Made by a program: the position numbers and the translations under genes. The notes beneath the pieces were generated by a model, which saw only the letters and a list, made by a program, of their open reading frames with translations, had not been told where the DNA came from and made no database searches. DNA of 32,000 nucleotides from Candidatus Baldrarchaeota archaeon (GTDB lineage: Archaea; Asgardarchaeota; Baldrarchaeia; Baldrarchaeales; DXJG01), in the NCBI GenBank assembly GCA_019056805.1, contig DXJG01000002.1, positions 136,907-168,906 of the forward strand, written 5' to 3'. Positions within the stretch are counted from its first letter, which is position 1. Each line of letters opens with the position of its first letter. Positions 3,473-18,653 of the stretch are shown in pieces.

Positions 3473-3776
3473 AGGTCACCTTTTACTTAATAATTAAAAT
3501 TTCAACTTAATAATTGATTTATCGTAACGCTTCCTTAACATCTCGCTGAAAATCAAAATGCATCTGAATTATTTGTTTTCTAGGTGTTTTATATGTTTTT
3601 ATCTGTTAGTTTCAAACATCTCTCTACACTATCTGAGTAATATCCAATGAAATAGTGTTACGTTAAACTGTAATCTCAATTCTATTAACAGTAATTTTTG
3701 TGTTATAAAAATTAAAGAATTCTCCAATCCTAAAATACTCAACACTTAATGTTTTATGTGCATGGGGGAGGTGACC

Positions 3777-6700
3777 TTGAAAAACAAACAAAAAATAAGA
3801 TTTAAGAGGTTTCGTAAAGATCTAAAGAAGTATTTCTTCGTTTTTTCCTTAATGTTCTCGCTACTCTACGTGGAATTCGTATTCTTTGTGAATTCAGCGT
3901 CCACAGGGCCCTTAGAGGGACTAGCAGTCTACTTGAATCCTGAGGGAAATGAGATTGAAAACGCTGTGGGAAGACTTGCAATAACAGACGAAGCACACCT
4001 ATTGGTAAAAGGTGAAGGGAAGTTTGAACTAAAAATATATGACTCAGAAGGAAGGCTTGTTCTGACAAGAAGAGGGAGATTTAATAATACAGGGTTTGCA
4101 GACATAAGCTTTCAACTTTCTCCAGAAAAGTTCAAAGTAAACAAGGAATACGTAGTTGTGCTTGAAGCTTTCAACGAACCTCTACCATTGATTCTAAAAT
4201 GTGGGAAAACAAAAATTAGGTTTAAGGTTAAGAGGGATATAACAAAACTTGGAATAGGATTCTACAAAAACCCCGTGACAAACGAGACAACGGTTTTCGC
4301 AAAGCTAATGGACGAGATAAACCCGATTGCAGGGCGAAAAATAAGGCTTGAGTATAAGCTTTACGCTTCGAATGAAAGCTTCAAATATTTAGGAGAAGCA
4401 ACAACAGATGAAAATGGGAAAGCTGAAATACCACTGAGAATAAACGATACTCAGCTAATTGTTGTTAAAGCCGAGTTTTGTGGAGACGAGTTTTACGAAC
4501 CCTCAGCAGTAAGCGAGATTTTCACAAACCAAATTGACGTAGATCTATACGCAAAATACGTAAGCGGGAAATTAAATTCAAACGCTTTAAACGAAGGAAA
4601 ACTAGGTACTGCGGTTTCCCGAAGTGAATCAAATTTAGAATCGAAATCAAGTACGAATGATAACGCTGGAAGAGTTGAACTTGGACTAATATCAAGCCTA
4701 AGCAAATTCTCCTCCAAATTTAATGTTAGTTTTGGATTTTCCGCGGCGAAAATCAAAGTCGCAATAAAATCCCGTGATGACTCAGTAAAACTTGAGAGCG
4801 AAGGCAAGGATCGAGGAAAGCTTGCTGAAGATGAAATGAACTTTAACTTCGATTTTGAACAAATGACGCTAATGGAATTCCTCAACAGAATTACCATGGA
4901 TGATAGCCCAGCATCTCTACTAGTTGATATTGCTGAAATTTTAAGTAATCCGTGCGATTTACCCTATGTTGTTCATAAGCTCCAAATAGTTTTAAGCAAG
5001 CTTTCTATTGCCTTAATTCCTATAGTTGATGGTGATGGGATTGTTTTGTATAGGGTTGAGGTTCACGAAGTCGTTAAAAAAGTTGCTAAGCAAGTTGAGG
5101 AAACTGTAACCGAGGTTCGCAGCAAGTGGGTTAAAAGGACAAAAACCGTTTATAAAAGGGTTGCTAAGCGGATTAGAGTTTGGATGAAGTTTGTAAAATG
5201 GGTTAAACAGCGTAAAGTTATAACTTATAGGTATTGGGATCCTTTGAAGTGGAGATGGGTAACCGTTTGTCAAGTTTACTATGTTTGGGTTCCAAAAGTG
5301 CAGTGGAAAGTTTTCTGGAAAACAATATACGAGACCGTAACTGAAACAGTAACCTACTGGGTAAGAGTTACTGAGACTGTTACGAAAAAAGTTGTAAAAA
5401 CAGTGTATGAAACAGTTAAGGAAACTGTCAGAGAAAACGTAAACGTATACAGGCTAAAGGTCTTCGAAGGAAAAGTCGTAGATCTGAAGGCGAATAAGGA
5501 ATACAATATAGCTGAGTGGCTTTTAAGTCTAGTAGGTGTAGATGTTAGGGCTTTGAAAGAGGCGATTGAGAACAAAAATAATCCCCTTGGAAGTTTTGTA
5601 GGGGCGTTTGGAGACCTTATAGGATCTCTAATAAACTTTGTAACAAACTTGGTGCAAATGTTTACAGATTCCTTAGAACGGTGTAGAAAGACGCTCATAG
5701 ACTTGATATTCAGTCAGGTATTCTATGATATGCTTGGACGTATGATAGTAATGGCAGAACTGGCGAGAAAGGAGGCAGAGGAAGGGAGTAGTGATAGTAG
5801 TGGAAGTGAGAAGGTTGTGTGGTTTGACGTTGATTTTGACGATTTCAATTTGCTGAGAGACTTAAGTGTAACGCGTTGGCCGGGAGGTGGGATTTGCGCG
5901 TTTTGTGGTCAGTGGCACTATTTACCAGAGGGTACTAAGGATATATCGAATAACGCGAAGCTATATTTGACTTGGAAGAAGCTTCGCGGAGAGAATCCAA
6001 TTGTCGAATATCTTATGGTTGAGAGACACTTATGCATCGTGAAGTATGAGGACGGCACGGAGAGACTTGCATGGGTAGACAAGGGAAGAATGAATATTGG
6101 AGATGATGGAATATTAAAGTATAAGATCGTAGAGGGCGTATATGCAGATATTTTGCCGCTAGGGATAAGGAGAACGTGTAAACTTATTTACAGTTTGAGT
6201 CCAAATAACCCAATGAAGATGACAGTTACACCGATGTATGAGGTTGTGGTTGCTGACTGGGCTAAGGATACAATAAATAGACTTGCTGAGGAAAGGAAGA
6301 GGATCGGTGATGGCGAACAGGTGTATCTACAGAGTTTCGATGAGATAATTAATAGTATAAGAGAGAGTTTGAAGTTCGGGGACGAGAATGCGGAAGTTAA
6401 GGAGATAGAGGTCGGCACCAAGGAAGGGAGGCAACTAATGTTCTTAGGGATACCAACGACAGAGGAGCAGATAAAGAACTTGTTAGGAGGTGAAAATGGT
6501 CTAAAAGAAATACATAATGCTAATGTTCGTATTTTAGCTGAACTACTTGATGGGAACATACCGGAGATGATTAGGGAGAAAGTGGAGAGTGGGGAGTTAA
6601 AGCCGCACTCGGGTGATATAAAGGATTTCTGCATAAGTGTGATAAATGACAAAATGGTGCCATTAAACGGTGAGATAAAGAATATTATAGTCAGGCAGCA

Positions 6701-8537
6701 CAAGGAAGTCTGTAAGATTATCGAGGCTAGGACTGGTGAAGGCGCTAAGCTTACAAACGCTCAATACATTTACGCAATCATAGGCGAGCACAAGTATAGA
6801 GACGTAATCTTGTTGGTTAACGCAGATCCGTTCAAATACGGAGCTGCGGACAAAAATATATTTTACTTGTGCGACGATACGCTGAAGTTTGGAGCTAGGG
6901 GATTCGAAAACCCAGATAAACTCAAAGAAGTAGCAACACTACGTGAATACATTGTGGATCGTCTCTCCGACAGCACCAGATACTACAGGGATGGCAATAA
7001 CTTTCAAGCTTCCCTAAACTTCTTTTACGCTAGGGTGGCGCAGTATGAACTTAAAACCATGCTCTGCGGACGGGATCTAAACAGGGAGGGAACAGAGTTC
7101 AAGATAGGCGATTACACCGAGCAAATATCCGTAGCTGAACTCGCAGAAATAAGGAAGGAACTGGCAAATATTGCAATGAGAGAGAAAACGGATGGAGTGT
7201 TAAGGTATTTTGAGAGGAATGAGAGAGTTAGGTGTATCTTCCTTCAGGTCTGTGGTTTCAAGGATCTAGATAGGGCGCTAAATAAGAAGATTGATAACAG
7301 TATGGAGATAAAGCCCTTATGCGAGGATTTAATCAGCAGAATAATCACGGATAATAAAGCTTTGAACGAGCAACTAGCTTGGCCAATAGGTCATGCACCA
7401 ATTGAAAAATTGGAGGTCTATCAGGAGGTAGTGGACAAGGGTATAACCGTGCGTCAGTTCTGGGATGCTATTGAAACGGCAGCTAGAAAAGAGGCGGGGG
7501 ACATGAAGGAGGCTGGAGGTGTAAAGAGGGAAGAGAAGGGAATAAGCGTGAAAAATGTGGGTAAGATGATTTTCAGATACGAGTTTTCGAGGTACTTGCT
7601 TCAAGAAATCTTCGGCGATAGAGTGAATCTAGTTGAAAAGTTGATAAGAAGGAACGAGAAAGGTGAGATTGAGGGACAAGATTTCGAGAGGCTGAAGGAG
7701 GAGGTAAAACAGGCACTTAGCGAAAAAATCAACGAAATACCAGAACCTCATCGGGAGAGTTTTGTGGAGGAGTTTACAAGGCTCTGTGTGAAGGTTGATT
7801 ATCATAGTAGGAGGCTTAGACTTGCTGGTGACATGGCTAAGGAGGCTTTCGGGTCTTTCAAGTATAAGGAAACGTGGGTGAAGGGATTTGTACAGTATTT
7901 TATTGCCATAGCACTTTTCTGGACTGGCATACTTGCAGCAATGACTATGATAATGGTTAAACCTGAGCCGTTTGCATGGCTTGTTTGTCATGACTGGGCT
8001 AGGATAGGCTTAGGTGTGGGTTTGACAGCGTTGTTTATCATAGGGTTAAACTTTGAGGGGGACTATATGAAAGCGTTGGTAAATCCTAAGAAGTATTTCG
8101 CTGAGGCTATGAAAAATCAAATTGTTGAGAGCGTCAAGGAGAGTGCAAAGAAGGGTTTGAGTTTGAAGGATGTTTTGAATTCTGATAAAAGCTTCGTAAT
8201 AACGATGATTGTGGGCGGGTTTGGAACAGTTATAAAAGAGCTTGGTGTACCGTTCTACACGAGCGATGAGTTATGTGATATGTTTTGTGAGTGGGTTAAG
8301 GGTTTTAACGAGGATGTTGGTAAGGTGCTACATAAGGTTTTAAGCTTCGAAATACCATTCATAAATCAAGCTCTATTCGACTTGATACTGGGGTTCTTGC
8401 TTGGTGGTCCGGTTGAGGTCATAGGCGATTCAATAGTTGGCGCAGTGATGAACATGCTGATGAACGTAATAAACAAGGCTGTAACAGAGTTACTAACGGT
8501 GATGGTTACACAGATCGCTGCTTCGACGGTGAACTAA
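3777..8537 (+). CDS. Very large (~1586 aa) secreted/membrane protein of unknown function
   Basis: ORF 3756-8537; likely start TTG 3777 after GGGGGAGGTGA. Basic n-region, hydrophobic h-region and VNSAS (signal peptide), beta-rich Ig-like N-terminal part, V/T/K/W-rich alternating segment, CAFCGQWH motif, several hydrophobic helices in the last ~200 aa. Confidence 0.85.
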   Translation: MKNKQKIRFKRFRKDLKKYFFVFSLMFSLLYVEFVFFVNSASTGPLEGLAVYLNPEGNEIENAVGRLAITDEAHLLVKGEGKFELKIYDSEGRLVLTRRGRFNNTGFADISFQLSPEKFKVNKEYVVVLEAFNEPLPLILKCGKTKIRFKVKRDITKLGIGFYKNPVTNETTVFAKLMDEINPIAGRKIRLEYKLYASNESFKYLGEATTDENGKAEIPLRINDTQLIVVKAEFCGDEFYEPSAVSEIFTNQIDVDLYAKYVSGKLNSNALNEGKLGTAVSRSESNLESKSSTNDNAGRVELGLISSLSKFSSKFNVSFGFSAAKIKVAIKSRDDSVKLESEGKDRGKLAEDEMNFNFDFEQMTLMEFLNRITMDDSPASLLVDIAEILSNPCDLPYVVHKLQIVLSKLSIALIPIVDGDGIVLYRVEVHEVVKKVAKQVEETVTEVRSKWVKRTKTVYKRVAKRIRVWMKFVKWVKQRKVITYRYWDPLKWRWVTVCQVYYVWVPKVQWKVFWKTIYETVTETVTYWVRVTETVTKKVVKTVYETVKETVRENVNVYRLKVFEGKVVDLKANKEYNIAEWLLSLVGVDVRALKEAIENKNNPLGSFVGAFGDLIGSLINFVTNLVQMFTDSLERCRKTLIDLIFSQVFYDMLGRMIVMAELARKEAEEGSSDSSGSEKVVWFDVDFDDFNLLRDLSVTRWPGGGICAFCGQWHYLPEGTKDISNNAKLYLTWKKLRGENPIVEYLMVERHLCIVKYEDGTERLAWVDKGRMNIGDDGILKYKIVEGVYADILPLGIRRTCKLIYSLSPNNPMKMTVTPMYEVVVADWAKDTINRLAEERKRIGDGEQVYLQSFDEIINSIRESLKFGDENAEVKEIEVGTKEGRQLMFLGIPTTEEQIKNLLGGENGLKEIHNANVRILAELLDGNIPEMIREKVESGELKPHSGDIKDFCISVINDKMVPLNGEIKNIIVRQHKEVCKIIEARTGEGAKLTNAQYIYAIIGEHKYRDVILLVNADPFKYGAADKNIFYLCDDTLKFGARGFENPDKLKEVATLREYIVDRLSDSTRYYRDGNNFQASLNFFYARVAQYELKTMLCGRDLNREGTEFKIGDYTEQISVAELAEIRKELANIAMREKTDGVLRYFERNERVRCIFLQVCGFKDLDRALNKKIDNSMEIKPLCEDLISRIITDNKALNEQLAWPIGHAPIEKLEVYQEVVDKGITVRQFWDAIETAARKEAGDMKEAGGVKREEKGISVKNVGKMIFRYEFSRYLLQEIFGDRVNLVEKLIRRNEKGEIEGQDFERLKEEVKQALSEKINEIPEPHRESFVEEFTRLCVKVDYHSRRLRLAGDMAKEAFGSFKYKETWVKGFVQYFIAIALFWTGILAAMTMIMVKPEPFAWLVCHDWARIGLGVGLTALFIIGLNFEGDYMKALVNPKKYFAEAMKNQIVESVKESAKKGLSLKDVLNSDKSFVITMIVGGFGTVIKELGVPFYTSDELCDMFCEWVKGFNEDVGKVLHKVLSFEIPFINQALFDLILGFLLGGPVEVIGDSIVGAVMNMLMNVINKAVTELLTVMVTQIAASTVN

Positions 8538-9638
8538 ATGGTTAGGAAAGGAAAATTTAAATTACTGTACATAGATTTAAAACCGGACGAAAAACTTAGT
8601 GGAAGGCTTCTGGAACTATTTCGTAGGGTTCCAGTTGAATGTTCAATAGCTAAAATAGAATATTTTTTTATTTATAATTTTGACGTCGAATCTGCTGTTG
8701 AGGGACTTACTGATCGGTGTAAGAGAGACGTGGGCAATCTATATCATATTACTGTTGAGGATGCTGAGTTTCCTGTTTTTTCTGGTGAAGTTAAACCGTT
8801 GGAGTTTCCTGAGGATGTTAAGGCTGATTTTATGGAGATTTGGGTAAATGGTAGCTTAGATGATAGGTGGAGGATTGTCTCAGATATTTTCAGGGATTGT
8901 AAGATGTTTAGGGTGAGAGAAGACCTTTATATTGTTGAAACGCTAATTAAATATGAGGGTTACAAGTACTACGTTGTTAAAGTGGGAGATTTCGCTAAGA
9001 AAAGTACTTATATCGACGATGACGGGCTAAGGGTTTCGGAGTACGAGAATGCCTGGAGGAAGAAGCCAGTTAGGACAAGAAAGGGTAAAAAGACGTGGGT
9101 TAGGGTTTTAGCAAAACACTCCCTCATAATGCCTGAGGCTGTAGTCATTGTTAATAAAATGACTAGAGACTTAATTTACGAGGTTAGTAATGGTAGATGT
9201 TTCATGTGTTCTTTTAGTGTTGAGGCGACTGAGGAAGCAATAAAACTACTATCGGAACTCAGAGATAACCCAGAAATATGGGGCATTAATCTGTGGAAGA
9301 GAGAAGAAGTTTATAGCGGGAAAATCGGCTTTGATGAGTTTCTTAAGTTTGATGAAAAGTGTTGGGCTGCAATCGCTTCAAACTACAAAGGTTACAACTC
9401 GTTGAAGGATCCCACAGGATGGAGAAGTCCTGAGAACCTTGAGGCTTTTAGGAGATCTGGTTGGGGATGGAAAGGCTGTATGGGCCTTGTTGTAGTTGAA
9501 AATGGCTATGATGTCAAAGTTCCTTACTCCGGCTTTCTTCGTCTCGAAAAATATTACAAGTGGAGAAATAGGTTTTTAGAATGGGGTAGGGAGATCTGTT
9601 TGCCAGAGAAGAGACTTCGGACATTCTATAATCTGTGA
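8538..9638 (+). CDS. Hypothetical 366-aa soluble protein, translationally coupled to the large upstream gene
   Basis: ATG directly abuts the upstream stop (TAA-ATG at 8535-8540); no signal peptide or recognisable motif. Confidence 0.8.
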   Translation: MVRKGKFKLLYIDLKPDEKLSGRLLELFRRVPVECSIAKIEYFFIYNFDVESAVEGLTDRCKRDVGNLYHITVEDAEFPVFSGEVKPLEFPEDVKADFMEIWVNGSLDDRWRIVSDIFRDCKMFRVREDLYIVETLIKYEGYKYYVVKVGDFAKKSTYIDDDGLRVSEYENAWRKKPVRTRKGKKTWVRVLAKHSLIMPEAVVIVNKMTRDLIYEVSNGRCFMCSFSVEATEEAIKLLSELRDNPEIWGINLWKREEVYSGKIGFDEFLKFDEKCWAAIASNYKGYNSLKDPTGWRSPENLEAFRRSGWGWKGCMGLVVVENGYDVKVPYSGFLRLEKYYKWRNRFLEWGREICLPEKRLRTFYNL

Positions 9639-9769: not shown

Positions 9770-9830
9770 GGCCGATGACGACAATCCGGCAAGGAGGAAC
9801 ACATGACTGATCACAGTTACGCGCGAGGCC
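9770..9830 (+). ncRNA. Box C/D guide sRNA (candidate), LSU rRNA H69/H71 guides
   Basis: GGCC/GGCC terminal stem, C box ATGACGA 9775-9781, guide aatccggcaagg, D'-like AGGA 9795-9798, C'-like ATGACTG, guide tcacagttacg, D-like GCGA 9823-9826, then a T-run. Boxes are degenerate; first guide is complementary to CCUUGCCGGA (recalled archaeal H71). Confidence 0.6.
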
Positions 9831-9923
9831 TTTTAATATTTTACACATTTAATGGTTATTATACTTATTTTTGGTGTAGTGGATTTTGTTTCGGATGATG
9901 CCTGGTCTGGTGGAGGGTAGGCG

Positions 9924-10469
9924 TTGGGTTTTGATAAAAAGAGGAGGGTAAAATTTTTTTATGATGCTACAGCGAAGTTTTACAGGAAACGGTATTATGA
10001 TATTCAATTAATTAAGTATGGAATTATTCTTAAAAAAATAGATAATGGAAAGTTTTTAGTTATTGATGTGGGATGTGGCATTGGTTTTCTTTGTCATTTA
10101 CTCTCTTTAAAGGGATTTAGAGTTGTTGGTATTGACTTTTCAATTGAAATGCTCAGAGAAGCAAAAAAATCAAGGCAATTACCAAGCGTTTCTTTTCTAT
10201 GCTGTGATTCTGATTTTTTACCTTTCCGTAGTGATGTTTTTACCGGGGCTTTTAGTGTCACTTTACTTCAAAATCTACCTGATTCCACGTTATCATTAAG
10301 TGAAATGGTCAGAGTTTGTAAAAAGGAAAGTATATTATATCTATCGGTATTATCAAAATCTCTAGACACAAAGGATTTAAGGATTCTACTTTCAAAGGCT
10401 GGTTTGAAAGATGTTGAGGTTTGGGGGAGTTTTGGTAGCGAGGATATCTATGGATGCGGGAAAGTTTAA
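9924..10469 (+). CDS. Class I SAM-dependent methyltransferase (Methyltransf_11/25-like)
   Basis: VIDVGCGIG motif I, VVGIDFSIEML, CCDSDFLPF; TTG start after GGAGGG. Confidence 0.9.
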   Translation: MGFDKKRRVKFFYDATAKFYRKRYYDIQLIKYGIILKKIDNGKFLVIDVGCGIGFLCHLLSLKGFRVVGIDFSIEMLREAKKSRQLPSVSFLCCDSDFLPFRSDVFTGAFSVTLLQNLPDSTLSLSEMVRVCKKESILYLSVLSKSLDTKDLRILLSKAGLKDVEVWGSFGSEDIYGCGKV

Positions 10470-10577
10470 AAGATTATGTCAATATTCGACTTGAAATAAA
10501 GAGTATGTATGAATAGATAGCAAGGTTTTTATTGTTTGAGTTATACATTTTTTCGAGAATCAGGGGGCATGTGTTGC

Positions 10578-10823
10578 ATGGAAAAAGATCCACTTAAACT
10601 ACTGGCAAAATCAATAAACAATGTTGTTCTTGTTAAACTAAAAAACGGTTTAGAATATAAGGGCAGATTGATCGAAGTAGATAACTATATGAATTTGGTC
10701 CTTAGTAGTGCCGAAGAGGTTGAAGAAGGAGAACCCAAAGCTAAGTATGGAGAAATTTTCATTAGAGGAAATAATATACTATTTATTAAACCAGATATCA
10801 CTGAAACCGACTGGGAAGAATGA
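10578..10823 (+). CDS. Archaeal Sm/Lsm protein (SmAP)
   Basis: VLVKLKNGLEYKGRLIEVDNYMNLVL (Sm1) and IFIRGNNILFI (Sm2); start ATG 10578 (or 10569) rather than 10536. Confidence 0.95.
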   Translation: MEKDPLKLLAKSINNVVLVKLKNGLEYKGRLIEVDNYMNLVLSSAEEVEEGEPKAKYGEIFIRGNNILFIKPDITETDWEE

Positions 10824-10850
10824 AAATCCTGCTTTAGAGTATTTAGACGG

Positions 10851-12899
10851 TTACTCTGCTACTTTTCTCTCCATTCTATACTTTTCTAGAAGTCTCTCTA
10901 TTCTTTCTTCGAGTTCCTTTTTCTCCATTTCTGAATATTCTCTTAGTCGCTTTTCAATTATCTGTTCAAGCTCTTTTTTACTAATCGTTGCAAACTCGTC
11001 AACTCTTCTTATATTTACTTCTTCTACCGATAGTACCGGTATTTTTGCTTTGAAAAATTCTTTAAACGCCATATGACTCATTGGAGTCCCACATATTATT
11101 GCTTTTACACCCTTTTTAATTAACAATTTAGCTGTTGAAGGCCCTCCTCCACTTGCATCCAAGAGAAAGACAACGTCTCCTCTTTTTATACCAACTTCTC
11201 TTTCAGTATCCATTATTCCTTCATAAGAAAATCTTCTTATCACTTTTAATGGTATAGCCAAACCTCGTGTTTCCATAACTCTCATTCTAATTAGCTGAGC
11301 AATTTTCTCATTAAGTTTAGCTATTTCATTCTTTAAAATTAAGTTCTCTTTTCTCAGTCTCTCTATTTCACGTTCTCTAAGCGAAATTTCTCTCAATTTT
11401 TTAATTTCAATAGCTTGTTCAGAAGTTATTTTTTCAATGAATTCTTTAAGCTCCTGATTTTTCTTCTCCAGTTCAGAAACTTTTGTTTTTAATTTTTGAA
11501 TCTGTCCTTCTAATCTTTTAATCACTTTTTCTTTAACATGTAATTGTTCTTTTAAATCGAGAACCTCTGGACTTGGTTTCTTTTCAATTGGTTTCGTTGT
11601 TTCCTCTGGTTCAGGTTTCTTTCTCGTTTCTTCTATTTCCTGAACCACTTTATTGATAGCGTCCTTTATAGACATTCCCTGAATCACCAGGGTCTTTACG
11701 GGATCAACAGGTATATTAATTCCAAGTTCTCTTATATGGGCTTCCACCCGGGCGAGTTTGTTCTTTAAACTTTGGTATGCCTTTATTGCTGCTGCTAATG
11801 CATCTCGCTGATGTGAATCTAAAGATATTTCTTCTTGATTTATTTTTTTGAGATAATCTTGGACAAGTGTTCTTTTTTCAACTACTGTTAGTGGCTTTGA
11901 AGGTTGAAAAAGTTGTGAATTGAGCGTTTTCGCTAATTTTTCAACAAATTGAGGTACCTGTGTCACATCGGTTGCTATTACTGCTGGTACACCGTGTTTA
12001 GCTATCAATCTTATAATGTCTTTTCTCGTTAACTCTTTTGCACTCTTTACCTCTAATATATTGCCATCAATATCTAAAATAGCAACACCAGTTGTGACTC
12101 CGGGATCTACTCCAACTATAACGTATTTTATCTCTTTCATTTTTATATCGGAAGAATGTAAAGGCAAAAATTCTATGTGCCTTTTTTGTACAGGAGTTAC
12201 TTTTATTTGAATATCCTGACCTTTAACAGGTTTTACAAGATTTAATACAGTATCATAATTTGCGTAAACAGTAAACTTACTTCTCACAAACCCGTGTTCA
12301 GACTTCCTTATGTATAAATCAAAATCTAACCCATGCGTATTGAGCAGACTCTCTATTTGATGTGTTGTTCGCTGAACAAGTGCGTACAATCTTCTTCTAT
12401 ATCTATCTTGACTCCATCCTCCAGGCCCTAAACTTCTTCCTCTAGATACCGTTATTTGCGTCTCTTCTTCAAAAGCCGAAACTAAATATCCTACACCCTT
12501 AGCTGCAAGTAATGCTGAAGCTTCAGCTTCTTCTAATGGAGATGCTTTACTTGGAATATTTATATCATGCCTCTTAGCTAACCTATGTAAAGGCTCCATG
12601 CCGTGTAGTGGAGAACCAGTTACTTGAATTACTTTGGTTTTTGCTGGTATTTTTAACATAAAGTTTATTATGTATTTCTCCTCCGACCCTAGTTCAAAAA
12701 TATTATCAATGGCTATAATATCTGGTTTTATTTCATTAATTTTTTCTACAAGCTTATAGTAGCTTAGTTCTTCATATTTTTCAATAATTTTATTGTCTTG
12801 AAGAATTACAACTGCATATTTCGCTTGTCTTTTAGAAGATGGGGATCTCATTGGTAAAATATCAATCCCCATGATAATTTTATCTTCATTTTCCATCAA
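10851..12899 (-). CDS. DUF460 family protein (RNase H-like domains plus coiled coil)
   Basis: IMGIDI, IIAIDNIFEL, SRGRSLGPGGWSQDRYRR, IVGVDPGVTTGVAILD, SHQRDALAAAIKAY and a long coiled coil. Confidence 0.9.
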   Translation of the reverse strand: MMENEDKIIMGIDILPMRSPSSKRQAKYAVVILQDNKIIEKYEELSYYKLVEKINEIKPDIIAIDNIFELGSEEKYIINFMLKIPAKTKVIQVTGSPLHGMEPLHRLAKRHDINIPSKASPLEEAEASALLAAKGVGYLVSAFEEETQITVSRGRSLGPGGWSQDRYRRRLYALVQRTTHQIESLLNTHGLDFDLYIRKSEHGFVRSKFTVYANYDTVLNLVKPVKGQDIQIKVTPVQKRHIEFLPLHSSDIKMKEIKYVIVGVDPGVTTGVAILDIDGNILEVKSAKELTRKDIIRLIAKHGVPAVIATDVTQVPQFVEKLAKTLNSQLFQPSKPLTVVEKRTLVQDYLKKINQEEISLDSHQRDALAAAIKAYQSLKNKLARVEAHIRELGINIPVDPVKTLVIQGMSIKDAINKVVQEIEETRKKPEPEETTKPIEKKPSPEVLDLKEQLHVKEKVIKRLEGQIQKLKTKVSELEKKNQELKEFIEKITSEQAIEIKKLREISLREREIERLRKENLILKNEIAKLNEKIAQLIRMRVMETRGLAIPLKVIRRFSYEGIMDTEREVGIKRGDVVFLLDASGGGPSTAKLLIKKGVKAIICGTPMSHMAFKEFFKAKIPVLSVEEVNIRRVDEFATISKKELEQIIEKRLREYSEMEKKELEERIERLLEKYRMERKVAE

Positions 12900-13416
12900 A
12901 AACCACCGAAGATATCCAGTAAAAACGCCATTTTTTTATTATTTATAATTTACGCTACAAGATAAAGGCTTTGGATAAATTCTTATGACTTTTCTACGAA
13001 AGTTTAGCATTAAAATATTTGGACGTATACTAATAGAATTTAAAAGTCACTTACTATTAATATTTACACCTACCCCATAAGTTCTTTATATCCATTAAAA
13101 TTCGATATTCACTCATCAAATAGCTACTTTTTTAAGAGAATACATGGAGCGGCAAAGGTTTTACAGAACATTTAAATTTATCTAAAAACTCATCTTTAAA
13201 ACAATATTACTATCTTTAGGCAACACACAAAACATCAAGCTATCAACATTTTTACATTAAGAAAAAATGTTAATATTATATATAATATTTTGTTGTTCTA
13301 AATCATATTTTTTGTTTAATTGAAAAAATATGATTGATAGATAAAAAAGATAAATTTATAAGTTTTCACTTAGAAAAATAATCCTAACAAAACAAAATAC
13401 ACAAGGTGATTAATAG

Positions 13417-13692
13417 ATGCAAGAACTCGTTGTGGAAGACGAAAACGTGGCAAAAATAGCAAAGGCACTAGCATCAAAAACACGCTGGCAAATCCTCAAA
13501 CTACTCAAAGAGAAAAAAATGGACGTCAGCAGAATCGCTGAAGTACTAAACCAAACAGAAGCAAACATATCGGCGCAAGTTAAAATTCTTGAAAAGGCTG
13601 GTTTGATTAGGAGTAAGTATGAGCCTGGTGAGCATGGTGTGAGGAAAGTCTGTGAACCTGCAGTTGAAAAGATAATTATCAAAATAAAATGA
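13417..13692 (+). CDS. ArsR/SmtB-like winged-helix regulator
   Basis: AKALASKTRWQILKLL...DVSRIAEVLNQTEANISAQVKILEKAGLI; AGGTGA RBS upstream. Confidence 0.9.
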   Translation: MQELVVEDENVAKIAKALASKTRWQILKLLKEKKMDVSRIAEVLNQTEANISAQVKILEKAGLIRSKYEPGEHGVRKVCEPAVEKIIIKIK

Positions 13693-13798
13693 ACTATTTC
13701 TGTTTTCTTCCCTAAAATTTGATGTACTTTTCTGTTTTCTAATTTTAATAGGATAGTATAGATTTATGAACCTACACAGAAGGGATGGTTATCAAAAT

Positions 13799-15325
13799 TT
13801 AGGTATATTGTTTTTCAAACTTTTTCGCTGCGTCTTCTAAATTTAATGCATGTTTTGGCTCTTTGCTTCTTCGTTTTCTAATTTTGATAAATAAGGGGAA
13901 ATTTACAGCTTCGCCTACAATTAACGCTTCGCCTACATTGAGTGTTGTAATTACATCTAGCACAGTCCTATCTATTCCTTCGCTGCTTTCACCTATGTGT
14001 TTTAAATCGTAGGGATTTGTAATACGAAGGATTATATGAGTATTGCATTGTGATAATACTGTTGTTGATAACTTCACTGGTCTTTGACTTATTAAACAAA
14101 GGGATGCGAAGAATTTTCTGCCTTCTCTAGCAATGGTTTCTATGATGCTTTTAGATATTGCGAGTTCTCTTCTTGCTTCGGGACAAAATTGGTGAGCTTC
14201 CTCCAAAATTAATACGAACGGTGGAATTTTTTCTTGTTTACGCAAGTCAAAAAGCCTTCTTGCCACGTATGAAACCAAAATTTGTTTTTTCCTTAAACTT
14301 ATGATCTCACTAAGATCAATTATTGCAGCATGTCCCGGTTTCACAATTTTATCCAAGTTTGGTGACTCCACTGGTCCAAAAAGCCCAGTTTCCTCTAAAT
14401 CATACAACCATCCAAGCAACGCTTCTTTTGTTCTTATATTCATCTTTTCATCTTGTTCTATCTCTCTAATAACATCTTGAAGAGAATAAGGAATTCCAGT
14501 TTCATACATTTTTCTTTTTAGATTTTTTAAAACTCTTCCTAACTCTCTGATTTGAATCGGTGAAATCTGTGGCTGAAATTCTCCAAACATTCTTTCACTT
14601 ATTTGAGGAACAGCTATCTGGAAGAAGGAAGTCTTAAAAACCGAAACTCTATCCGAAAAATCTACATATCCACTGCTTTCAACTTTTTCAGCAAGAGAAA
14701 CATATTCGCCATGTACATCTACAATTACAACCGCAACTCTTCCTTTTGCAGGGCTACGTAATAATAGCTCTTCAGTTAAAACAGACGCTAGATACGATTT
14801 TCCGGCTCCTGAAATTGCAAGGATAGCTACATGTTTTTGAAGTAATCTTGTAAGATTTAATCTTGCTGGTATATTATGATAACGGACTGTACCAAGCTCT
14901 ATCCCATTTTCTATATCTAGCCCCAGAAAATTTGCTAATGTATCTTGACTTGCAAGTCTAACCTTTTCTCCTGGAGACGGGGGGAAGGTAACTCTTTCCA
15001 GTTGTCCATTTATACTTATTGCAAGCGGTTTTGCTTTAGCAATAATATATTCCCATTTATCGACAGGAAAAATTGTGGTTAGCGGTTTACCACCTCTTTC
15101 ATATTCTCTAACTGCTTCGGCGTGCATAAAATATCTATTAGTTTTCATGATTTCGGTTACTTGAGCAATTAGTTTTCCTTCTTCAGTACTAACTTCAACA
15201 AACTGACCAGTTCTAACGGGTACTGATAACGATGTATTTGTGACCACAAAGTCGAATTCAAATGCACTTGGGCCACTACTGGTACATATTACTGTTCCGA
15301 CTTCTCTTTCCACCGATACCCCCAT
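13799..15325 (-). CDS. herA: HerA-family bipolar helicase/ATPase
   Basis: N-terminal HAS-barrel-like region, Walker A ISGAGKS, VDVHGEY, Walker B LILEEAH, AREGRKF, SQRP; start probably ATG 15325 (track start 15391 is an extension). Confidence 0.9.
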   Translation of the reverse strand: MGVSVEREVGTVICTSSGPSAFEFDFVVTNTSLSVPVRTGQFVEVSTEEGKLIAQVTEIMKTNRYFMHAEAVREYERGGKPLTTIFPVDKWEYIIAKAKPLAISINGQLERVTFPPSPGEKVRLASQDTLANFLGLDIENGIELGTVRYHNIPARLNLTRLLQKHVAILAISGAGKSYLASVLTEELLLRSPAKGRVAVVIVDVHGEYVSLAEKVESSGYVDFSDRVSVFKTSFFQIAVPQISERMFGEFQPQISPIQIRELGRVLKNLKRKMYETGIPYSLQDVIREIEQDEKMNIRTKEALLGWLYDLEETGLFGPVESPNLDKIVKPGHAAIIDLSEIISLRKKQILVSYVARRLFDLRKQEKIPPFVLILEEAHQFCPEARRELAISKSIIETIAREGRKFFASLCLISQRPVKLSTTVLSQCNTHIILRITNPYDLKHIGESSEGIDRTVLDVITTLNVGEALIVGEAVNFPLFIKIRKRRSKEPKHALNLEDAAKKFEKQYT

Positions 15326-15414
15326 GTTTTTAAAATTAAAACAATATAAAATTCTTTCCTCTCTGCTTTCTCGGCAAAACATTAAAAGCACTAAATATAC
15401 TATTTGATTCTAAA

Positions 15415-16575
15415 TTAAAAAGGTCTTCTATCACGTCTAAGCTTTAGTAGTGAAGGCAGGAATCCAACAGCATGAACTAAACTATCATAGATAATTTCAA
15501 GGTCAGATTCGAGGAGTCTTGCTCTTGCATCAGCCTCAATTATAACTGAAGGTGTCGCATATTCTGAGTGATAACTTGAAAGGGGATAAATTATTGAGGC
15601 CAGTCTATTTGCAAGGTTTATCGGATTATCTCTAAATGTTAAGAATTCTATACGAATAGGAATATCAAATTCTACAGTTTTGAGATAAAACACGTTAATC
15701 GGCTTGGTCCAACCTTTCTCTTCCAAATCTCTTAGAATGAGATGTTCTTGCGGCTTTTCAGAATAGGAAAACACTAATGTTCTCTCACCCACATCTAAAA
15801 ATCTAAATAAAAAATCTGAGTCTCTCATTAACTTCAATACTTGTCTATAATCAAAATTTAATAGGTTTTTTAGTTCTGAATATCTATAAATTAGATGAGG
15901 AAGTAGTCTGTTTAGGATTTGTATAAACCTTGTACTTCTGCTATCCTCAATTACACCTGCCAAGATAGTATTTGTTTCTATGGACTTTTCATACAATTTT
16001 ATATACAAATCAAGAATTTGTTCATATTTTTTAATTAAAAGTGAAGTTGAAACATGTGGTTTATCAGTAATTTGTGGAATAAGTGATCCGTTAAGAAGAA
16101 TGGCATCAACACTATATTCGTCTTGGACTTTAATAGCAACTTCCAACTCAGTTTTGAGTCTTTCTAAATTTGCATTTATTTCCGAGTTAATTTTATTTAA
16201 CGGGGTAATATTAATAATTATTTTTGGTTCAGGGAATTTATCCGGAAAATAGTCAACGTTAGGGCCTTCTTCTGATTCATACCTAAAAATAGCTGCTACT
16301 GCTCTAGTAATTATCAAATCAGCGCATTGCAATGACCGATTAAGAACACCGCCATCAATCCCAGCTACACATAAACCCCTAAGATTAGTAGGAGTTACAT
16401 TATAAGCAAGTTTATCTTCTAGTAGGTCTAATCTACCAACCTTAGGTAAAGAAGAAAAGTCTGCCTTTGTTTTTATTGATCGAAGAATTTTACTAAATAA
16501 ATCTTTATGTTCTTCAATTTTTACGAGATCTTTTACAACATTTCTCATTTGTCTTTGCAAATCAAACATTAACAT
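15415..16575 (-). CDS. nurA: NurA 5'-3' nuclease
   Basis: VAGIDGG, LLNGSL, AGVIEDSRS, YATPSVIIEADARAR; directly upstream of herA. Confidence 0.88.
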   Translation of the reverse strand: MLMFDLQRQMRNVVKDLVKIEEHKDLFSKILRSIKTKADFSSLPKVGRLDLLEDKLAYNVTPTNLRGLCVAGIDGGVLNRSLQCADLIITRAVAAIFRYESEEGPNVDYFPDKFPEPKIIINITPLNKINSEINANLERLKTELEVAIKVQDEYSVDAILLNGSLIPQITDKPHVSTSLLIKKYEQILDLYIKLYEKSIETNTILAGVIEDSRSTRFIQILNRLLPHLIYRYSELKNLLNFDYRQVLKLMRDSDFLFRFLDVGERTLVFSYSEKPQEHLILRDLEEKGWTKPINVFYLKTVEFDIPIRIEFLTFRDNPINLANRLASIIYPLSSYHSEYATPSVIIEADARARLLESDLEIIYDSLVHAVGFLPSLLKLRRDRRPF

Positions 16576-16580
16576 TTACC

Positions 16581-18265
16581 TCAGCATCTATTTCTTTTAT
16601 GCTTTAACGCTTCTCTGACGAAGGCAACATATATCGGAGACGGCCTATTAGGTCGACTCTTAAATTCAGGGTGAAACTGGACTCCTACAATCCATGCGTT
16701 ATTTGCAAGTTCTATTGCATTCACAATGTTACCCGTTTCATCATACGCTGAAATAACCAGATTTTTATTCTCTGCTTTTTCTGCATATTCTTTTATAATG
16801 TGATATCTGTGTCTAAATCTCTCCACAACTACTTCTTTTCCATAAGCTTCAAAAAGCTTAGTTCCCCTTTTTATGTAGATTTTATGGCCGCCCAACCGCA
16901 TGGTTCCACCTTTCGCTTCTATCTTACGTTGTTCTGGAAGCATATCAACTACGGGATGTGGTGTATTGGGATCTATCTCCGTGCTATTTGCATCTTTTAA
17001 TCCAAGCATTCTTCTACAAAATGCAATAAATAAAAGCTGAGCACCGAAACAAATTCCTAAAAACGGCTTTCCCTTAAGTATGGCATAGTCGGCTGTTGCA
17101 ATCATGCCCTCCACACCCCTCTTACCGAAACCAGGTGTAAGAAGAATACCGTCAAAATTATCCAACATACTTATTTTTTCCGGATTTTCTTCAAATACTT
17201 CTGTTTCAATCCATTCAAGTAACACTTTTACTCCTAGGTGTGCACCTGCATGTTTTAAAGCCTCATTTATTGAAATATAACTATCAATAATAGCTGTATA
17301 TTTGCCAGGCATTGCTATTTTTACGGTTTCGTTGTACGTTTTGAATTTTTCTACGACTTGTTTCCAGCTTTCAAGCGAAGGAGTACGATTTTGGAGATTT
17401 AAAATTCTAGATAAATATTCTCCAAGCCCCTGTTCCTCAAAAAGAAGCGGTAATTCGTAAATACAATCAGTATCAGGGTTTGAAATTACAGCTTCAACGG
17501 GTACATTACAATATAGACTAATTTTTTCTCTTATTTTTTGATCAAGAGGAATTTCAGCCCTACCAACAATAACATCAGGTTGAAGTCCCATGCCTTGGAG
17601 AACTTTAACACTATGTTGAGTAGGTTTTGTTTTGAGTTCTCTAACAGTCTTAAGGAATGGGAGAAGAGTAACATGTACTAATGCGGTATTTTCTCTAGGT
17701 TCTTCTAATCGAAATTGTCTTATAGCTTCGAGAAAAGGCATGGCTTCTATATCTCCTACAGTCCCCCCTACCTCAACAATCAATATATCTGGATTCTCTC
17801 TCTTAGCAACTTCCCTAATCCTGTTTTTTATTTCATCGGTAATATGTGGTATTATTTGAACAGTTTTACCAAGATATTCTCCAACTCTTTCACGAAGAAT
17901 AACCGATAAGTAAACCTGTCCACTAGTAATATTATTGCATGGATGAATATTTTTATCTAAAAATCTTTCATAAGTCCCAAAATCTTGATCAATTTCGGAT
18001 ATTCTAAATTTAAAACCATCAGCTGGTGTGAATTCCCAAACATCTTCAGTTACAAAAACCTCCCCATGTTCGATTGGATTAAGAGTACCTGGGTCAACAT
18101 TCAAATTCCCCCACGGCTAGAAATACTCTAGCCGCGTTAGGGGTCGATTTTTATAGCATCAACACTAAACCCTCTAAATTGGAAAAGTTTGGCAATCGAA
18201 GCAACAGTAACACCCTTACCAATACCAGACATAACTCCTCCTGTTATAAATATGTATTTTGTCAA
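16581..18265 (-). CDS. pyrG: CTP synthase, two exons (18265-18138 and 18105-16581), 550 aa after splicing
   Basis: Exon 1 from TTG 18265 (GAGGTG RBS): [42 protein letters not shown] plus UA; exon 2 U plus [18 protein letters not shown]..., [10 protein letters not shown], glutaminase FLGICFG and QFHPEF. The ORF track starts at 18104 and misses exon 1. Confidence 0.97.
18106..18137 (-). other. 32-nt bulge-helix-bulge (BHB) mRNA intron in pyrG
   Basis: Minus strand: UCGA-CCCC-UA|A-CGCGGCUAGA-GUAUU-UCUAGCCGUG-GGGG-AA|U-UUGA. 4-bp CCCC/GGGG central helix, two 3-nt bulges, 10-bp intron stem, 4-bp exon helix; splicing yields GAC CCC UAU UUG AAU (DPYLN). Confidence 0.93.
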
Positions 18266-18376
18266 TTTTTAACACCTCACAAATAAACAAATTAAAATAT
18301 TTTTCATGATATAATGTGATATTTTGGTAACTTTAAAATTTCGTTAAATTTCATCGATGTTTTGTTTTGCGATAGA

Positions 18377-18385
18377 TATTTTAAG
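18377..18385 (+). promoter_or_regulatory. Putative TATA box for the 18407 sRNA
   Basis: TATTTTAAG about 22-30 nt upstream of the predicted 5' end. Confidence 0.45.
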
Positions 18386-18406
18386 CTAATGGAGATTTGT
18401 TAATAT

Positions 18407-18483
18407 TGCGGGATGATATTACGACGGTCTCATGAGCTTTCATTGTTTCTTAGCAAGGATGAGAAATGGGCAGCATGACCGCA
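18407..18483 (+). ncRNA. Box C/D guide sRNA, predicted 2'-O-methylation of LSU C2590-equivalent
   Basis: TGCGG/CCGCA terminal stem; C-like ATGATAT 18413-18419; guide ttacgacggtct 18419-18430; D' ATGA 18432-18435; C' ATGAGAA 18459-18465; D ATGA 18475-18478. Guide pairs over 12 nt (one G-U) with recalled LSU AGACCGUCGUGA. Confidence 0.82.
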
Positions 18484-18594
18484 CTAAATACTACTTTTTA
18501 AATTTTGAATGCTCTTATGCAAAAAGAAGTAACCTATAAAAAGGCGGTTACTAAAATTTTACGATAAAATTTGAGATGGGTAATATTTGATAGG

Positions 18595-18653
18595 TGGCTC
18601 ATCCAAATGCCTTTTCATCACTTTTCAGTGCCGGAAGTATTAATCATCGACCA
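18595..18653 (-). ncRNA. Box C/D guide sRNA, predicted 2'-O-methylation of LSU A1938-equivalent
   Basis: Minus strand: tggtcg-ATGATTA-atacttccggca-CTGA-aaa-GTGATGA-aaaggcatttgg-ATGA-gcca, classic C-D'-C'-D spacing with 12-nt guides; D guide is complementary to CCAAAUGCCUU. Confidence 0.88.

Follow-up and report, generated by a model that had tools for sequence, protein, structure and literature searches.

Three box C/D sRNAs of an Asgard archaeon with predicted 23S rRNA targets in common with Thermoproteota and eukaryotes

Described guides for the same rRNA positions

Four 23S rRNA positions considered here are already assigned to crenarchaeal box C/D sRNAs in Dennis 2015 (PMC4644070, Additional file 1). 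Column 2211 of that compilation (G1945) is attributed to Thermoproteus tenax (Tte) sR30, Pyrobaculum calidifontis (Pca) sR54 and Ignicoccus hospitalis (Iho) sR91, column 2204 (A1938) to Sulfolobus acidocaldarius (Sac) sR125 and Iho sR109, column 2864 (2590) to Pca sR30, Tte sR52 and Iho sR27/sR124, and column 2179 (A1913) to Iho sR91. These crenarchaeal sites are predictions; many shared sites were called convergent in that work, which made no comparison with yeast. No list of measured modifications for P. calidifontis was found in the portion of the literature covered by the search, which likewise turned up no modification data for Asgard archaea.

The same targets are served in eukaryotes by yeast snR75, snR13, snR73 and snR63 and by plant and human U15 and U35, which direct methylation of Gm2288, Am2281, Cm2959 and Am2256 through the same +5 rule (PMC3511168, PMC5199042, PMC11542601). 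The U15/snR13, snR75 and U35/snR73 sites are placed at the level of LECA (PMC3511168, Table 1), and sites common to plant, human and yeast are tabulated in PMC11542601 (Table 2). Unlike the archaeal RNAs described below, these snoRNAs are longer, distribute their targets differently per RNA and work with Nop56/58 and Snu13; yeast methylates A2280 as well. PMC3511168 recognized only one to three archaeal–eukaryotic equivalences and could not establish homology: because a guide has to be complementary to conserved rRNA, its occurrence in two lineages is no proof of descent.

Three sRNAs and their predicted targets

The window is a 32,000-nt stretch of contig DXJG01000002.1, and all feature coordinates are positions within it. 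Its host is an uncultured Asgard archaeon in the genus of 'Odinarchaeota' AUK032, one of the two placements (Asgard or TACK) for which the original prediction was considered relevant to snoRNA origins; genes for fibrillarin, Nop5 and L7Ae-family proteins are encoded. Motif and Rfam searches of the host assembly returned no 16S or 23S rRNA, and targets are therefore read on the 23S of AUK032, together with that of one further relative (G004). Numbering follows a MAFFT alignment of the relatives' 23S with E. coli rrlB and a yeast 25S drawn from metagenome contigs, which has the expected base at 37/37 Nm positions. Yeast A2281, G2288, C2959 and A2256 correspond in this alignment to E. coli A1938, G1945, 2590 and A1913. 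The features are as follows.

9770..9830, + strand: sRNA1, dual-guide box C/D sRNA with a 4-bp stem; C 9775-9781, D' 9795-9798 (AGGA), C' 9803-9809, D 9823-9826 (GCGA)
9784..9794, + strand: sRNA1 D' guide; 11 bp to 23S 1941-1951, no G-U; predicted target G1945 (yeast Gm2288)
9811..9822, + strand: sRNA1 D guide; helix 69; strict +5 rule gives A1912 here, orthologs give A1913 (yeast Am2256)
18407..18483, + strand: sRNA2, box C/D sRNA with a 5-bp stem; C 18413-18419, D' 18432-18435, C' 18459-18465, D 18475-18478
18420..18431, + strand: sRNA2 D' guide; 12 bp, 1 G-U; predicted target C2590 (yeast Cm2959)
18466..18474, + strand: sRNA2 D guide; genus-invariant, only 7 bp to helix 92 at C2558; weak, target uncertain, not a yeast site
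18595..18653, - strand: sRNA3, dual-guide box C/D sRNA; C 18647-18641, D' 18628-18625 (CUGA), C' 18621-18615, D 18602-18599 (AUGA)
18603..18614, - strand: sRNA3 D guide; 11 bp, no G-U; predicted target A1938 (yeast Am2281)
18629..18640, - strand: sRNA3 D' guide; 10 bp, 1 G-U; most likely target G1906, not a yeast site

Judged by sequence, the three RNAs are ordinary archaeal box C/D sRNAs whose target pairs are already on record. Each is 50-80 nt long, lies outside protein-coding frames and has the order C-guide-D'-C'-guide-D. Each carries a guide of 10-12 nt complementary to rRNA, with a Watson-Crick pair at +5 on the same-genus 23S, and the G1945, C2590 and A1938 pairings are each clearly the top match in rRNA. 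Near-invariant guides are kept in 3/3 other genomes of the genus while the flanking sequence diverges; sRNA1 and sRNA3 are also present in a genome of the same order. Compensatory guide–rRNA changes occur in genomes that have both guide and 23S, and the sRNA1 D' guide covaries with the 23S of its own host in other Asgard genomes. A further candidate at ~9894 was rejected, as the other boxes are missing and it shows no conservation.

The assignment of the three guide RNAs to Gm2288, Cm2959 and Am2281, originally made from numbering offsets, proves exact on the alignment, and the offsets themselves are right. What had been described as convergence of all three stands insofar as the best guide of each falls on a yeast site, but these are three different sites, not one. 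Yeast sites are matched by 3/6 guides strictly and by 4/6 at family level; the other three fall on A1912, C2558 and G1906 in this genome.

I. hospitalis sR91 resembles the sRNA1 family in being a dual guide with D directed to A2179 (A1913) and D' to G2211 (G1945), in the same order, a likeness judged on the targets. Here, in an Asgard host, the GCGA D box has one extra C in front, which moves the strict prediction one base off the yeast site to A1912, whereas A1913 is predicted from the D guide of all orthologs.

sRNA3 likewise matches S. acidocaldarius sR125 and I. hospitalis sR109, in which D is directed to A2204 (A1938) and D' to G2172 (G1906) in the same order. Apart from the host lineage, it differs in its AUGA D box and in a G1906 pairing that contains one G-U and competes with a G-U-rich alternative, a 15-bp match at G2621 that has six G-U pairs and is less likely than G1906. 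Alone of the three, sRNA3 has an Rfam match, to sR17, which covers the boxes only, has different guides and at 30.3 bits lies below the gathering threshold of 36.

For sRNA2, the likeness to P. calidifontis sR30, T. tenax sR52 and I. hospitalis sR27/sR124 lies in the D' guide, directed to C2864 (2590). The D guides of these RNAs are directed to C2880, G2322 or G2842, whereas sRNA2 has a weak D guide near C2558 and a 23-nt variable insert between D' and C'. It is convergent with sRNA3, and this adjacent pair is kept in the host's family, Jordarchaeales and Odinarchaeaceae.

Distribution and repertoire

Pattern searches place the guides on both sides of the Asgard–Thermoproteota divide. The A1913 pattern occurs in 49/250 Asgard genomes (2 control hits) and 38/301 Thermoproteota (0 control), the A1938 pattern in 53/250 Asgard genomes (7 control), and the C2590 guide in 13/151 Thermoproteota (1 control) as well as several Asgard families. 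Loose C2590 and G1945 patterns are noisy, and only matches checked by eye were counted; one genome labelled Thermoproteota (L033) is Asgard and was left out of the TACK counts. A1913 is paired with G1945 in most Asgard archaea and a few crenarchaea, and with A1938 in many Thermoproteota (19/25 loci read). The G1945+A1913 sRNA was found in 16/16 Hodarchaeum genomes searched, in which A1938 guides (1/16, doubtful) and C2590 guides (2/16) are rare. Pattern search found neither of the latter two in one large family (f5), and in several large Asgard families (f5, f7 and f9) most genomes show no match to the guide patterns.

For Euryarchaeota the comparison covers four published repertoires and a single structure paper. 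All four sites are unpredicted in the Methanopyrus, Methanococcus, Nanoarchaeum and P. abyssi sets and in the M. acetivorans structure; in Methanopyrus the target sequences are the same and the repertoire comprises 127 sRNAs. Broad methylation across all archaea, which the original prediction held would remove any special affinity, is thus approached only in part: the guides are broad across TACK and Asgard, but absent from the published euryarchaeal sets.

A four-box scan found ~16 sRNAs genome-wide; its decoy counts run high because the genuine sRNAs score there too on their boxes. Of the sRNAs found, 7/16 carry a yeast site, and at this rate 3/3 within a single window would need only mild luck (p = 0.06). 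A half-module scan (C box, guide and NNGA) performed no better than decoy rRNA and was dropped.

Descent, convergence and Asgard affinity

The predicted sites are probably part of an ancient stock of methylation targets that Thermoproteota and Asgard archaea have in common with eukaryotes, common descent being the simplest account, and are addressed here by ordinary sRNAs. L7Ae would bind each sRNA, once expressed, at the C/D and C'/D' K-turns, and Nop5 and fibrillarin would assemble on it. Once the guides had paired with pre-23S rRNA, 2'-O-methylation would fall on the base facing the fifth nucleotide upstream of D or D': G1945, A1938 and C2590, and probably A1912/1913 and G1906. sRNA1 and sRNA3, with two guides each, would thereby bracket helices 69-71. 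The target set may go back to the ancestor from which Thermoproteota, Asgard archaea and eukaryotes all descend, the guide modules having been combined differently in different lineages.

Convergence is an unlikely but serious alternative, in which guides turn over fast and archaea and eukaryotes have separately arrived at the same nucleotides under selection at the H69-71 subunit interface and the peptidyl transferase centre. Archaeal hot spots are known at H68-71 and H90-93, partner guides vary between lineages, and Rfam finds no similarity to snR75, snR13/U15 or snR73/U35 beyond boxes and guide at E up to 5. Several further guides of the genome also fall one base beside yeast sites (C1995, G2447 and G1050, like A1912). 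Exact matches are nevertheless far above site density, since yeast Nm sites make up 11/264 positions within the H69-71/PTC hot spots and 6/13 hot-spot calls land on them (p ~7e-6). Across ~10 Asgard families guide, register and partner stay the same, and this, with the conserved sRNA2/sRNA3 gene order, indicates slow turnover of these guides. Methanopyrus, for all its sRNAs and identical targets, has guides for none of the four sites.

Still less likely is an Asgard-specific affinity, in which these repertoires would be nearest the eukaryotic set and keep direct precursors of snR13, snR73 and snR75. Besides the ubiquity of the G1945+A1913 sRNA in Hodarchaeum, this reading draws on enrichment: yeast sites make up 6-7/15 predicted 23S targets here vs 12/142 in Sac, Tte and Pca (Fisher p = 0.003 strict). 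The enrichment is lost against small repertoires (Mma and Neq, 5/24, p = 0.28; Sac alone, p = 0.056), and the genome scan itself favours conserved targets because relatives' rRNA was used. Methanococcus (Mma), with a small repertoire, has 3/7 yeast sites, all 3/3 sites reported for M. acetivorans in the structure paper are yeast sites, and Ignicoccus has 10-11 yeast-shared 23S sites, more in number than this genome. The repertoire of this genome is small too, and a conserved core would form a large share of it. The scarcity of A1938 and C2590 guides in Hodarchaeum and family f5 also speaks against such an affinity. All seven yeast-shared 23S sites of this genome are predicted in non-Asgard archaea as well (0/7 exclusive to Asgard among archaea), and none is thus confined to Asgard archaea and eukaryotes.

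The suggestion that this lineage retains guides ancestral or convergent to snoRNAs accordingly survives for the sites, which are LECA-level and not universal in archaea, but not as anything special to the lineage. Predictions for each site already exist from two or three crenarchaea, the guides occur widely among Thermoproteota, and sRNA1 and sRNA3 have both target regions in common with crenarchaeal sRNAs. Since guides for the same positions are predicted in Crenarchaeota, the set is shared by TACK, Asgard archaea and eukaryotes and marks no special Asgard–eukaryote link.

It is very improbable that the motifs arose by chance or are remnants of decayed genes with no guiding role: some boxes have non-consensus letters (AGGA, AUGA and GCGA), folding is not strong (z -0.55 to 0.48) and the one Rfam match is weak, but GA is kept in every box, protein-free C/D sRNAs normally fold weakly, reversed-pattern controls give near-zero counts, and the guides stay invariant amid diverging flanks and change together with rRNA.

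Beyond a shared target set, the guides for Am2256, Am2281, Gm2288 and Cm2959 may, more tentatively, have been inherited unbroken from the TACK–Asgard ancestor and be missing in Euryarchaeota, with small Asgard repertoires, among them the G1945+A1913 sRNA fixed in Hodarchaeum, measurably enriched for eukaryotic sites. This bears on whether individual snoRNA families predate eukaryotes: unbroken inheritance, if true, would give several named snoRNA families archaeal ancestors that could be traced for the first time. The four sites, whose guides extend over both Thermoproteota and Asgard archaea, form a testable set, and three of them are predicted in Sulfolobus, Pyrobaculum and Ignicoccus, culturable organisms whose methylation is measurable and whose guides could be knocked out.

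Three box C/D sRNAs and their predicted targets

The window carries three box C/D sRNAs, each with a D' guide and a D guide:

9770-9830, + strand: sRNA1, intergenic, all four boxes
18407-18483, + strand: sRNA2, intergenic, all four boxes
18595-18653, - strand: sRNA3, intergenic, all four boxes

All three are kept in the other genomes of the host genus (G001-G003), where the guides hardly vary while the flanks diverge, and the host genome encodes fibrillarin, Nop5 and L7Ae-family genes. Their role is very likely standard guided 2'-O-methylation by L7Ae-Nop5-fibrillarin, which would modify nucleotides at the subunit interface and at the foot of the PTC.

The host (1.92 Mb in 18 contigs) is Asgard, since its PurA shares 88% identity with that of the same-genus genome 'Candidatus Odinarchaeota archaeon AUK032' (G003) and 72% with that of Baldrarchaeum yapensis. 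ARAGORN detected only 18 tRNA genes in the whole genome, most with introns, consistent with heavily interrupted Asgard tRNAs. A search of the 18 contigs found no rRNA, so the 23S of AUK032, with its 583-nt intron behind position 1926 taken out, and that of G004, a genome from the same order, served as targets; 16S came from G004 (partial) and one Jordarchaeales genome. The AUK032 intron, 3' of E. coli position 1926, lies between the sRNA1 and sRNA3 target regions, and other Asgard 23S genes also carry an insert there.

Alignment of E. coli rrlB, yeast rDNA and seven Asgard 23S sequences equates yeast 2256, 2281, 2288 and 2959 with E. coli 1913, 1938, 1945 and 2590; the yeast Nm list, checked against PMC5199042, has the right base at all 37 and all 18 positions. 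By the +5 rule, the best guides of sRNA1, sRNA2 and sRNA3 are predicted to target G1945 (11 bp), C2590 (12 bp, one G-U) and A1938 (11 bp), exactly the yeast methylation sites first proposed. Their second guides are predicted to target A1912, C2558 (7 bp) and G1906. Host sRNA1 has one extra base between D guide and D box, giving A1912 rather than A1913; in all orthologs the D box directly follows the guide, which makes A1913 (yeast Am2256) the predicted target, so the family adds one yeast site to those first claimed. Across Asgard genomes, the sRNA1 D' guide varies in step with host helix-71 sequence.

The sRNA2 D guide (within 18436-18474) is invariant in the genus and variable in Odinarchaeaceae and Jordarchaeales orthologs. 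It could bridge the A-loop, pairing with 2550-2552 on one side and 2557-2563 on the other while four bases loop out, which suggests a chaperone role.

Neighbouring genes and a pyrG intron

Immediately upstream of sRNA1 lie 1593-aa (3756-8537, +) and 366-aa (8538-9638, +) ORFs, neither with a match in a Pfam search. An Sm-like ORF, recognized by eye (10536-10823), adjoins the sRNA1 neighbourhood, and a nurA-herA pair (13799-16575) lies downstream of pyrG.

The pyrG gene (minus strand, 18265 or 18232 to 16581) holds a 32-nt bulge-helix-bulge intron at 18106-18137, with a 10-bp stem and a CCCC/GGGG central helix, that interrupts the KIDPYLNVDPG motif of CTP synthase. Its removal restores a 539-550 aa frame. 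G001-G003 have a 31-nt version at the same position; the intron is absent from Baldrarchaeum and one Odinarchaeum genome. Because neither length is divisible by three, the mRNA very probably needs splicing.

Genome-wide repertoire and enrichment

A four-box scan of the host genome yields ~16 credible sRNAs. Yeast sites make up 6/15 of the best 23S calls (G1945, A1938, G2251, A2577, C2590 and U2552, the last depending on a non-canonical D' box), or 7/15 counting A1913, and 2 of ~11 16S calls (A364, G1197). With yeast sites placed by hand on the alignment of Dennis et al. 2015 (PMC4644070), the corresponding shares are 5/38 in Sulfolobus acidocaldarius, 3/39 in Thermoproteus tenax, 4/65 in Pyrobaculum calidifontis, 2/17 in Nanoarchaeum, 3/7 in Methanococcus and ~17/287 in Ignicoccus hospitalis and Methanopyrus together. 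The host's share is above that of the first three, all crenarchaea (p = 0.003); set against the small repertoires of Nanoarchaeum and Methanococcus it shows no such excess (p = 0.28). These are hand counts with predictions on both sides, a published table that includes secondary targets and a host scan that favours conserved ones. Given 7/16 sRNAs with a yeast site genome-wide, finding 3/3 in one window has p = 0.06.

Three further host guides fall one base off yeast sites: C9:599074-599125, C17:237633-237690 and C9:293934-293982 (C1995 vs Cm2337; G2447 vs Gm2815; 16S G1050, between Um1269 and Gm1271). A C2467 call matches plant site Cm2837. Two sRNAs with strong boxes (C6:61239-61288, C6:9688-9736) had no rRNA target found; their guides may be directed at tRNA or at variable rRNA missing from the assembly.

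Distribution and history of the target set

The sites are not special to this lineage, as all four are already predicted targets in crenarchaea (PMC4644070). There, column 2178 corresponds to A1912 and column 2880 to C2606, which places the four at 2179, 2204, 2211 and 2864. G2211 (G1945) is assigned to T. tenax sR30, P. calidifontis sR54 and I. hospitalis sR91; A2204 (A1938) to S. acidocaldarius sR125 and I. hospitalis sR109; C2864 (C2590) to P. calidifontis sR30, T. tenax sR52 and I. hospitalis sR27/sR124; and A2179 (A1913) to I. hospitalis sR91 and probably S. acidocaldarius sR113, printed 'A21779'. Both targets of sR91 are identical to those of the sRNA1 family, and both targets of sR125 and sR109 to those of sRNA3. 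The published target lists of Methanopyrus (127 sRNAs), Methanococcus and Nanoarchaeum contain none of the four sites (PMC4644070). None appears among the plant-shared sites of P. abyssi, and in a structure paper on M. acetivorans the only Nm residues described are 2251 and the adjacent A-loop pair.

In genome searches, the G1945+A1913 sRNA was read in ~ten Asgard families, including Jordarchaeales, Freyarchaeia, Atabeyarchaeia, Njordarchaeia, Borrarchaeum and Hodarchaeum. The A1913 pattern matched 49/250 Asgard genomes (reversed-pattern control, 2), with all 16 Hodarchaeum genomes positive, and 38/301 Thermoproteota (control, 0). Its partner is an A1938 guide in 19 of the 25 Thermoproteota loci read, in either order, and the G1945+A1913 form occurs in one Thermoproteota genome. 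The A1938 guide search matched 53/250 Asgard genomes, and that for the C2590 guide 13/151 Thermoproteota and ~eight Asgard families. The convergent sRNA2-sRNA3 pair also occurs in Jordarchaeales and Odinarchaeaceae, besides the host's family. Three large Asgard families (f5, f7, f9) came up blank, which may be due to variant boxes and to gaps in the genomes.

An Asgard-only link to eukaryotic sites finds no exclusive site to back it, and all seven host 23S yeast sites are predicted outside Asgard too. Convergence of archaeal and eukaryotic guides on the same sites is possible, because any guides for a given site must share sequence (PMC3511168). The simplest history is an ancient target set that Thermoproteota, Asgard archaea and eukaryotes have in common and whose guides have switched partners. 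sRNA1-3 themselves are new, their target pairs already catalogued; the cross-domain site pattern, stated in neither PMC3511168 nor Dennis et al. 2015, is the part that deserves follow-up.
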